Of a stretch of 64,000 nt of DNA, positions 47,701 to 50,700 are shown piece after piece; the first letter of the stretch is position 1, and each line of letters begins with the position of its first letter. The notes beneath the pieces were generated by a model that worked only from the letters and a program-made list of their open reading frames with translations, was not told where the DNA came from and did no database searches. The stretch spans positions 12,834,001 through 12,898,000 of the forward strand of contig OX597839.1 in NCBI GenBank assembly GCA_951406725.2, given 5' to 3'. A program made the position numbers and the translations under genes. Origin of the DNA: Octopus vulgaris. Taxonomy: Eukaryota.

Positions 47701-50700
47701 CCTCCTCACTTGTTCCTGTAACTCTTTTTCTTTCTCCTATTGTATAATATGCACACTTAACCCTTTTGTTACCAACCTGGCCAAAACCGCCTCTGGCTCT
47801 GTAGTACAAATGTCTTGTTTTCCTAAGTTTTGAATTAAAATCTTCCACCAAACCTTAGTCACAATTTATGTTCCTAACACTAGCTTAATGGTAACTAAGT
47901 TATTTTATTAAATTCTTTGTTATATTTAAAATAATTGAAAGAAACACAGAGCATCTCAACAGAAATATGGTAACAAAAGGGTTAAATATATACATTCATG
48001 TTTGTGGAATCAACTCATAATAGATATTTTGTTCATCTTTCATTTTTATTCCAGAGAAGATGAAACTGATGCTGTACCATTAAACAATTCTGAAACCAAT
48101 ACAGAGCCTGTATGCTTTGAAACGTCCATCAGTAACTCTGATACATTACCTAGTCTTAGTGAAACTCCAGAAACTAAAGCAGTGCCCATAATTAATGAAA
48201 ATGACAGAAATGATGACGATTCAATACCCAAGCCTACAAAAGAAAGCCACAATAAAATAAGGGCAATACCCAAATCTAATGAAGATAGCGACAGTAAAAC
48301 TGATGCAGTACCTCGACCTTGTGATTATCCTAGCAAGAATACTCCTGCCATGTTGGTCCCTAAAGGAACTCGTAGCTATAATATGCAAGCAACACTCCTT
48401 CCCAGAGAGGATCCCAGAAAAGAATTTGACCCAAGATGCCATAAAGATGATCTATTTCACAACCAGCCAGACTCCTCTTATAATGATCCTCATTCAGAAG
48501 GAGCAAAAGCTCTAAACATGTTTTCACAATGCTGTATGCTCCAAACTTTTTTATATTTCCTTAGATAAATTCATCATCATTACTTTGCATTGCTTCCCTA
48601 TCATAATTTCTTAATTATCATTACTTATTATGCTGTCATCATTACTTTTCCATCGCTTATTTATCATCATTACTCTCTTATTATTATTTACAAATATTCT
48701 TTGTAATCATTACTTTCCCGTTATTACTTCATCATCATTACTTCTCCATCAGTCTTTGTCAATCATTACTTTGTCATCATTGCTATTTTTACTTTGTTAG
48801 CAACACTTCGTCATTATTATTTTGTTATCCTTACTGTTTCATCCTGAATTACCTACATCATCTACATCATCGCTTTGTTTTCCCTTTGTCATAATTCATC
48901 ATCATCTGATTTGGAAACTTACTTGTACCAATACAACTCTCCCATTCCAAGTATCCCGAATAAGCCATATGGCATGCACATCTGGCCTGGGTTTTAATCA
49001 CCTTGGTCTTTCATGAGCTAAAATATCTCACTTGCACTTGCCACAACTACAGATAAAAGCAGTATTTTGCTAACAAGACAATCCTGATCATTGACACTTT
49101 GTTGTTTGTTCATTCACTCAGCATCTAGTGGCATTTGTCACTGATTCAAGAAATTAGTTTGCCAAAATAATTCACATTCACCATGCTGCATCCCATAACT
49201 TCAGTGTACCCTGGCTCAGGTAGTTTCATGCTATTTAGGCCTTATCTGGGACTCTGACAGGTGCTACTACTCAGGCCAAAGTAGACCTGGGAACAACAAA
49301 CAGTGGCTAACAGAGGTGGTTCCACATTCCTCAAAACCCTGGTGGTCCTGAACTACTGGATGGGGTTTCACTCTTTAGCATTTAAACTGGCCATATCTAA
49401 CTCAAATATTCTTATTTCTTTATTGCCCTCAAGGGGCTAAACATAGAGGGGACAAACAAGGACAGACAAAGGAATTAAGTCGATTATATCAACCCCAGTG
49501 CGTAACTGGTACTTAATTTATCGGCCTCGAAAGGATGAAAGGCAAAGTCGACCTCGGCGGAATTTGAACTCAGAACATAACCAGTCTGCCAAATGAAGCA
49601 CTAGCTCTGCTCATTCTGTATGTGATTTCCTGGTCCAGTCATGCATTATCTGAGATGGTACTGCCTAGGTATTTGAATGCTTTGCATTGGGCCAGCCTTT
49701 CATATCTAATAGTGATGTTTTCTTCTGTTACAGGCACATGTAGGTTCTCCACAGGTTGGTAAAGGTATTTGGTTTTTCTAATGTTAATCTTTAAGCTGAA
49801 TTTTTGTGCAGCTCTAGCAAAGTTACCTACCAGATTCTGCATATCTTCAGCACTGTAGGCAACTGGTGCACTATCATCAGCATCTTTTGCAATAGGGCCT
49901 TTATAATGCATATCTTTGCTTTATATTGTGCAGCCTTGAACAGATCAACATCATGCCACATCTAGATGTAAGCCCCACTCCAACTTCCTTAAAGGCAACT
50001 TCCAACACTGCTGTGAGATAGAGGGAGAACAGTGCTGGAGCAAGTATGCACCCCTGACTAACTTCATTTATCACTGCAACCTCACTTGAGGTATTACTAT
50101 TTTGTACTATAAATGCTTGCATTCCTTCGTGTAGGACTGATACTGTGTCAAAAGCCATTGTGACATCTATGAAAACTACATACATAGGCATATTCAGCTC
50201 AATGCATTTTTCCTGAATTTTGCATAGACAGAAGATCATATCCACAGTGCTTCTGCAATGGAAGCCACACTGAGTCTCAGGTAAGACAGATATACTCATT
50301 TAGTCTGTTTAATAGAATATGAGCCAAGATCTTCCCAGCTATTGATAGAAGAGATATTCCTCAGTAGTTTCCAGAGTTCACTTTACAACCTGTTTTGAAG
50401 ACAAGAATGATGCCTGTGTCTTTCCACTCTTGTGGAACCGTTTCCGTCTTCCAGATCTGGAGCACAGTGCTATACAGGCTTTTAATAATCTCTACACCTC
50501 CATGCTTCCAGATTTCAGTGGGTATTTACTTTCGTTCAGTTGTTTGATTACGTCATTGAATTGATTGTAAACAGGTTTGTCATCTAAGGATTGGATGATT
50601 AGCTGTTGCGTAACCTTCTTGAGAGTGTCATAGTCCATTGATACTTGGGATATTAAGTAGGCTGTCAAAGTGACTGGCAAATCTATCAAGGATCTCCAGG

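Follow-up and report, generated by a model that had tools for sequence, protein, structure and literature searches.

The closest described counterparts of the octopus gene considered here are the IMD adaptors of arthropods, proteins of 240-310 aa that combine a disordered N-terminus bearing an Asp↓Ala-x-Pro site (the arrow stands for the cut), a cRHIM-like motif and a C-terminal death domain, and that have no kinase. In insects, DREDD exposes an IAP-binding motif (IBM) at IMD sites that read LETDA, LTTDA, LKSDA or LEKDA (LEKD/A in Drosophila, LETDA in dipterans and LTTDA in beetles, according to the accessible text of PMC6626034), and the pathway is described in the accessible part of PMC9496462. 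The IBM consensus is given as A/S-x-P-x (accessible portions of bioRxiv 10.1101/2023.02.06.527237; PMC7290580). The octopus adaptor shares each element of the arthropod architecture at the level of sequence, but carries six or seven copies of the cleavage/IBM module where arthropod IMD has a single one. It further differs in its pair of RHIM-like motifs, in its mollusc host and in belonging to a tandem cluster of six or more gene copies, namely B1, a near-copy with a frameshift, A1, the copy in the window, A2 and A3. IMD-like genes have reportedly been seen in mussels. By analogy with IMD, we read the octopus protein as an adaptor in which a repeated cleavage/IAP-binding module would form a multi-site caspase switch, a reading to which we give a probability of roughly 0.55. 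It would place an IMD-type adaptor with intact cleavage/IBM logic in a group for which IMD is stated as not found (PMC9835746, 2023, in its accessible part).

Three further systems offer partial parallels. RIPK1 has the closest solved death domain and likewise sets a RHIM before it, but no model of the octopus gene considered here has a kinase domain. In Grim, a caspase cut parts the IBM portion from a ubiquitinated lysine (PMC3979898), as we propose by analogy for a piece of the octopus protein; unlike the latter, Grim has a single N-terminal IBM and neither RHIM nor death domain. BRD4-L and IgA, in the accessible text of bioRxiv 10.1101/2023.02.06.527237, also hold multiple latent A/S-x-P motifs in one chain; there they are incidental and drug-induced, whereas the octopus array is a repeated, evolved signalling module. 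A search of titles and abstracts, with a coverage ending short of subscription papers, returned neither an IMD from a cephalopod nor one with multiple sites, and the accessible parts of PMC12137711, PMC9334734, PMC12773714 and PMC10639161 held nothing further.

The motif array of exon 2

The window, a stretch of 64,000 nucleotides of Octopus vulgaris DNA, holds on its + strand a gene copy whose second exon (48055..48533, 479 nt, defined by splice sites and run contigs) encodes the repeat array and a disordered linker. This single exon, between an AG acceptor (48053-54) and a GT donor (48534), carries six motifs in frame, with the first bases of their P1′ codons at 48071, 48143, 48179, 48221, 48263 and 48305 and their P1′ residues at 15, 39, 51, 65, 79 and 93. 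Two of them are of the Asp↓Ala-Val-Pro class; Asp↓Ser-Ile-Pro and Asp↓Thr-Leu-Pro occur once each, and in the remaining two P1 is Lys or Arg. An earlier note on this DNA had proposed a series of caspase-site/IBM modules here, with EDETD↓AVPL and SKTD↓AVPR among them; the series is present, in frame within a spliced exon and far above chance, and the two named motifs have P1′ at residues 15 and 93. The number Asp14 given to the first cut holds when counting from the ATG at 41800 and is provisional, because a stretch resembling an acceptor lies just before the 41800 exon and an A-type gene has, in one of its database models, an in-frame extension further upstream.

The 159-aa exon was compared with 100,000 shuffled versions of itself, using patterns picked post hoc when the sequence was already known: A[VI]P occurs 4 times (shuffle mean 0.063) and [AST][VIL]P 6 times (0.50), counts that 0 of 100,000 shuffles reached, and D↓A[VTI][PA] occurs twice (0.021; p 0.00018). 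The looser [AS]xP pattern gives 6 against 2.5 in the O. bimaculoides orthologue (p 0.022). With codon shuffles as the reference, autocorrelation of the array DNA peaks at a lag of 42 nt (z 5.1; p 0.0005 when all lags are considered), and motifs are spaced 24, 12, 14, 14 and 14 aa apart, which gives a degenerate unit of 12-14 aa; TRF does not call the array as a tandem repeat, and a repeat search finds three two-copy families at 70-76%. The array is an old tandem repeat of a 12-14 aa unit, with a probable seventh copy that has decayed; the internal repeat claimed earlier is borne out by its 42-nt periodicity and its supposed length of 15-25 aa is not. Across the units compared, flanks are 15-17% identical and the prime-side columns are retained; Pro stands at P3′ in 7/7, a result that is partly circular because Pro itself served to find the units, while the third position of the Pro codon stays at the background level (0.29 against 0.33). 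Five of the six listed modules conform to the IBM consensus (TLPS does not), as do all six in O. bimaculoides.

The modules differ in how much of a caspase site they keep. Module 1 (DETD↓AVPL, 48059..48082, +) is a predicted full caspase site followed by an IBM; it matches the dipteran LETDA, which at the sequence level upholds the earlier assignment to the IMD-type class of caspase site then IBM, and reads DEID↓AVPL in O. bimaculoides. Module 2 (SETN↓TEPV, 48089..48112, +, P1′ codon at 48101) is a probable decayed copy, recognized by its register and retained Pro. In module 3 (SNSD↓TLPS, 48131..48154, +) the Asp is present and the P1′ Thr lies off the IBM consensus; the O. bimaculoides counterpart, SLPS, is closer to it through the change of Thr to Ser, and D↓TLP is a weak candidate for a caspase/IBM site. 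Module 4 (PETK↓AVPI, 48167..48190, +) has a Smac-like tetrapeptide without Asp and is missing in the A paralogs. Module 5 (NDDD↓SIPK, 48209..48232, +) is predicted to be a plausible caspase site with a Ser-type IBM, and P1′ Ser also occurs in two database proteins named IMD (P0131 and P0101). Module 6 (NKIR↓AIPK, 48251..48274, +) is IBM-like and lacks Asp; it and K↓AVPI are probably not caspase switches. Module 7 (SKTD↓AVPR, 48293..48316, +), the predicted second full caspase site with an IBM, is similar to IKTD, the site of shrimp IMD, and to PKTD in the related protein P0015; its counterparts are NKTD↓AVPQ in O. bimaculoides and IETD↓ALPV in paralog A3, P4′ being Arg or Gln among copies. Arg, Gln or Lys at P4′ may give weak BIR3 binding. 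SxIP, TRAF6 and SIAH motifs, compared by eye through their consensus sequences, do not fit the array. No A>G changes were seen in contigs covering exon 2, an assembly form in which rare variants get lost.

An IMD-like adaptor and its relatives

The first coding exon of the window copy, of A-paralog type, lies at 41800..41825 (+; coding part of 8 codons and 2 nt). Downstream of exon 2, exon 3 (51506..51628, +) encodes two cRHIM-like motifs, NINIG and NVIIG, and continues directly from exon 2 in the contigs of 4/4 runs; these [IV]x[IV]G motifs sit at the position of the cRHIM of IMD, a likeness at the motif level with no Pfam RHIM match. Exon 4 (56617..56691, +) begins the death domain. The copy's last death-domain exon is not in the assembly, which has a gap at 57213..57312, so the death-domain test was run on the full-length relatives P0001 and P0005: there a C-terminal Death domain (PF00531) is found at E 3e-10, with no further Pfam domain over the cut-off. 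Among solved structures the best match is the death domain of RIPK1 (E 9e-12). In the orthologue model, residues 1-196 are mostly at pLDDT < 50 (disordered) and 198-300 are folded. A kinase domain is absent from the full-length models P0001, P0002 and P0005, and a strict search with a RIPK1-type kinase query placed 0/9 matches at the gene's locus. Trees of the death domain (96 columns) do not separate IMD from RIPK1, and they do not reject a grouping with arthropod IMD (p-AU 0.25). Judged from sequence, the gene encodes an IMD-like adaptor with a predicted disordered N-terminus, two cRHIM-like motifs, a death domain of RIPK1/IMD type and no kinase; the label IMD-like is one of anatomy, because the order of site, RHIM-like motif and death domain is that of named IMDs and module 1 matches an insect site.

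A library-wide search gave 222 matches, and our counts rest on the 150 listed. As relatives we counted proteins no longer than 460 aa that fall outside the cephalopod group, have one death domain and carry a D↓[AS]xP site ahead of a RHIM-like motif. P0078, whose site follows the motif, and the cluster duplicate P0165 were left out. Fourteen such relatives appear among the 150 matches listed, and 13 of them have one site, P0086 having two. Look-ups of nine of the 14 gave two proteins named IMD (P0131 and P0101, with the same order of site, RHIM and death domain as the octopus protein), one hypothetical protein from a beetle and six without a name.

P0015 stands apart in carrying three D↓A-x-P-[VI] sites, all intact (3/3; D↓A-[MN]-P-[VI]), in repeat units of about 50 aa that are identical to one another at only 18-20/41 residues. 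It groups with the octopus proteins at a support of 97/93 (the starred clade), and weakly so in another tree, and all three of its matches in the octopus genome assembly (G000) fall inside the gene cluster. It represents a separate expansion of the same module and shows that the single IMD switch can multiply, as it has apparently done twice. Word-index protein searches (2, 2 and 5 matches) returned Octopus proteins and P0015 only, and therefore no named squid or cuttlefish orthologue. The Argonauta match, P0008, is N-terminally partial, lacks such a site and has its best matches in G000 at other loci, which makes it uninformative.

In G000 there are 26 matches to BIR, a part of them with groove motifs of a type-III-like kind, and three to DED, two adjacent and one alone, which is compatible with the presence of IAPs and of caspase-8-like and FADD-like genes. 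About five IAP genes with multiple BIRs stand in tandem at G000:C2:40.77-41.03 Mb (L029-L048). At least 89 death-domain matches are found on contigs C29, C30, C31 and C1, and related death domains occur on ankyrin/RING (MIB2-like) proteins, which the tree places with the adaptor's domain. In the products of two single-exon genes on contig C14 (L055 and L056), a death-fold-like region at the N-terminus and a death domain at the C-terminus flank the motif ADD↓SVPN, which L056 repeats once. In eight stretches at five other death-domain loci, a crude and incomplete ORF scan found no IMD-like array.

A proposed multi-site switch and its alternatives

The repeated cut/IBM motifs point to two or three sites that are likely to be functional caspase sites. 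We propose, by analogy with Drosophila IMD, that the cRHIM-like motifs polymerise the adaptor and that its death domain brings in FADD and a caspase-8-like enzyme, which would cut after D14 and D92 and perhaps D64. Each cut would give the RHIM-death-domain core a fresh N-terminus of the form Ala/Ser-x-Pro, so that recruitment of an IAP ligase could still proceed from any of the sites. Cutting a second time would release a piece headed by an IBM, comprising residues 15-92 or else 15-64 and 65-92; as residues 15-92 hold six lysines (K50-K90), such a piece could take away ubiquitin chains and titrate IAPs. The earlier idea that several IBM-bearing fragments are released survives in so far as more than one IBM could become exposed, with two full sites and one plausible site that are kept in O. 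bimaculoides and multiplied in P0015. Should the extra sites be functional, a single adaptor could recruit IAPs as well as antagonise them, linking NF-kB signalling to cell death, and the paralogs with zero, one or several sites would be natural controls; should they not be, the locus offers a modest example of decaying repeats in a cluster of IMD-like genes. In a bolder extension, which we hold only tentatively and think doubtful, the adaptor would be a poly-IBM precursor that further caspase or proteasome cuts turn into a string of Smac-like peptides, an NF-kB-to-death switch evolved twice.

The multi-site switch has to be weighed first against an account that we regard as a real possibility, though one that is probably wrong: an ordinary one-switch IMD whose module was copied by slippage, one intact copy being enough and the others decaying relics. 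Such redundancy would fit the paralogs, which differ in the copies they keep: B retains full sites 1 and 7, A3 only 7, and A1/A2 have no D↓[AS]xP site, their IBM-like motifs reading N↓AVPK and N↓ALPP. Since A1/A2 have no site and A3 has one, the array can decay; four of the seven units lack a full site, and a single site suffices in 13 of the 14 other IMD-like relatives among the matches listed. The earlier expectation that motif cores are kept above their flanks gains only suggestive backing, which also suits redundancy: between O. bimaculoides and the octopus protein the P1-P3′ core is 23/24 identical, against 54/63 for the flanks (p 0.17, not significant) and 109/135 for the rest of the exon (p 0.054). 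Against it, P0015 multiplied the module separately and kept every site, the prime-side columns are retained although unit flanks have diverged, and the disordered array is more conserved between species (77/87) than the folded death domain (71/89), with 55/72 for the part of the exon outside the array. A1 and A2 (window 26746-27119; L014 1523-1896) retain the RHIM-like and death domains with no Asp at the IBM-like motifs, and by analogy with Pirk could be uncleavable decoys.

The copies without Asp raise another account, an unlikely one, in which proteasomal degradation of the adaptor, once ubiquitinated, cuts after Asp, Lys and Arg and frees several short A/S-x-P peptides that neutralise IAPs and tip the cell towards death. 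Acidic and basic P1 residues fit two activities of the proteasome, and 12-14 aa fits the length of its products. The account would explain a prime side kept with P1 = D, K or R, but not the P0015 units, which are about 50 aa long and all have Asp. Internal IBMs are freed by the proteasome in BRD4-L and IgA (bioRxiv 10.1101/2023.02.06.527237, accessible text), a precedent that is drug-induced and from human cells. Within the multi-site switch, proteasome release could, speculatively, still give the copies without Asp a role.

We think it very unlikely that the array is a multi-protease sensor in which Asp-, Lys- and Arg-specific proteases of host or pathogen each trip a module of their own. K↓AVPI and R↓AIPK are present in O. 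bimaculoides too, and N occurs at P1 in A1/A2, as such a sensor would allow. A pathogen tripwire is expected to change fast, as is known from NLRP1/CARD8. The comparison of B1 with the window copy gives the opposite picture: the array differs at 1/271 nt, much like the introns (26/9235; 0.1-0.3%), whereas exons 3 and 4 changed fast (5/123 and 4/75), all 9/198 differences altering amino acids against about 0.6 expected at the intron rate. Rapid change sits in the interaction domains rather than in the cut sites, and the rate of the array is at such a short distance indistinguishable from neutral. We found no candidate protease, and the activation by Lys/Arg-specific enzymes suggested earlier is not upheld, with no such enzyme found, a P1 that varies (D, K, R; N in paralogs) and an array that is not fast-changing. 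The differences in exons 3 and 4 (window 51506-51628 and 56617-56691 compared with L010/L011) hint that either diversifying selection or gene conversion acts on the interaction surfaces.

Least probable of all is that the protein is no IMD-type switch and is instead a kinase-less RIPK1-like adaptor whose repeats serve as other binding motifs or as a spacer, a notion encouraged by the database names, the best solved match and the undivided tree and countered by the IMD order of site, RHIM-like motif and death domain and by the identity of module 1 with the dipteran IMD site.

Gene copies and transcripts

Exon 2 is covered from acceptor to donor (48053/4-48533) by contigs of 5/5 runs, which are presumed by guess only to be RNA and whose contigs behave as spliced. 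It is joined to the A-type first exon at 41800 in contigs of two of four runs (X5, X9) and to a B-type first exon, 64 kb upstream of the window, in the other two (X3, X10). Since the body of the window copy matches the complete upstream B gene at ~99% identity, an A-type exon on a B-type body in spliced contigs makes the window copy an expressed chimera. Among the contigs listed from four runs, none has its own exon-4 letter at 56662. Near-identical named proteins, at 99% and 83%, are from Octopus and carry RIPK1-like database names.

Paralog A1 (12338..32786, +), in which the array has decayed, has exons at 12338, 26746-27119, 28413-28541, 31221-31295 and 32581-32786. The upstream near-copy is represented by death-domain exons at 874..2417 (+), and its exon 2, which lies beyond the window, is shorter by 1 nt and carries a frameshift. 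Window stretches 1-1468 and 55744-57212 are 99.93% identical, the latter stopping at the gap at 57213-57312, and are either a recent duplication or two haplotypes assembled. A 414-bp unit occurs in 25 copies at 99% identity in a first intron (window 12633-22972), in five copies in the next gene copy (59055-61127) and once at 42095. The introns also hold decayed retroelement fragments at 45484-46476 (−) and 53500-55900, which by eye look endonuclease- and reverse-transcriptase-like.
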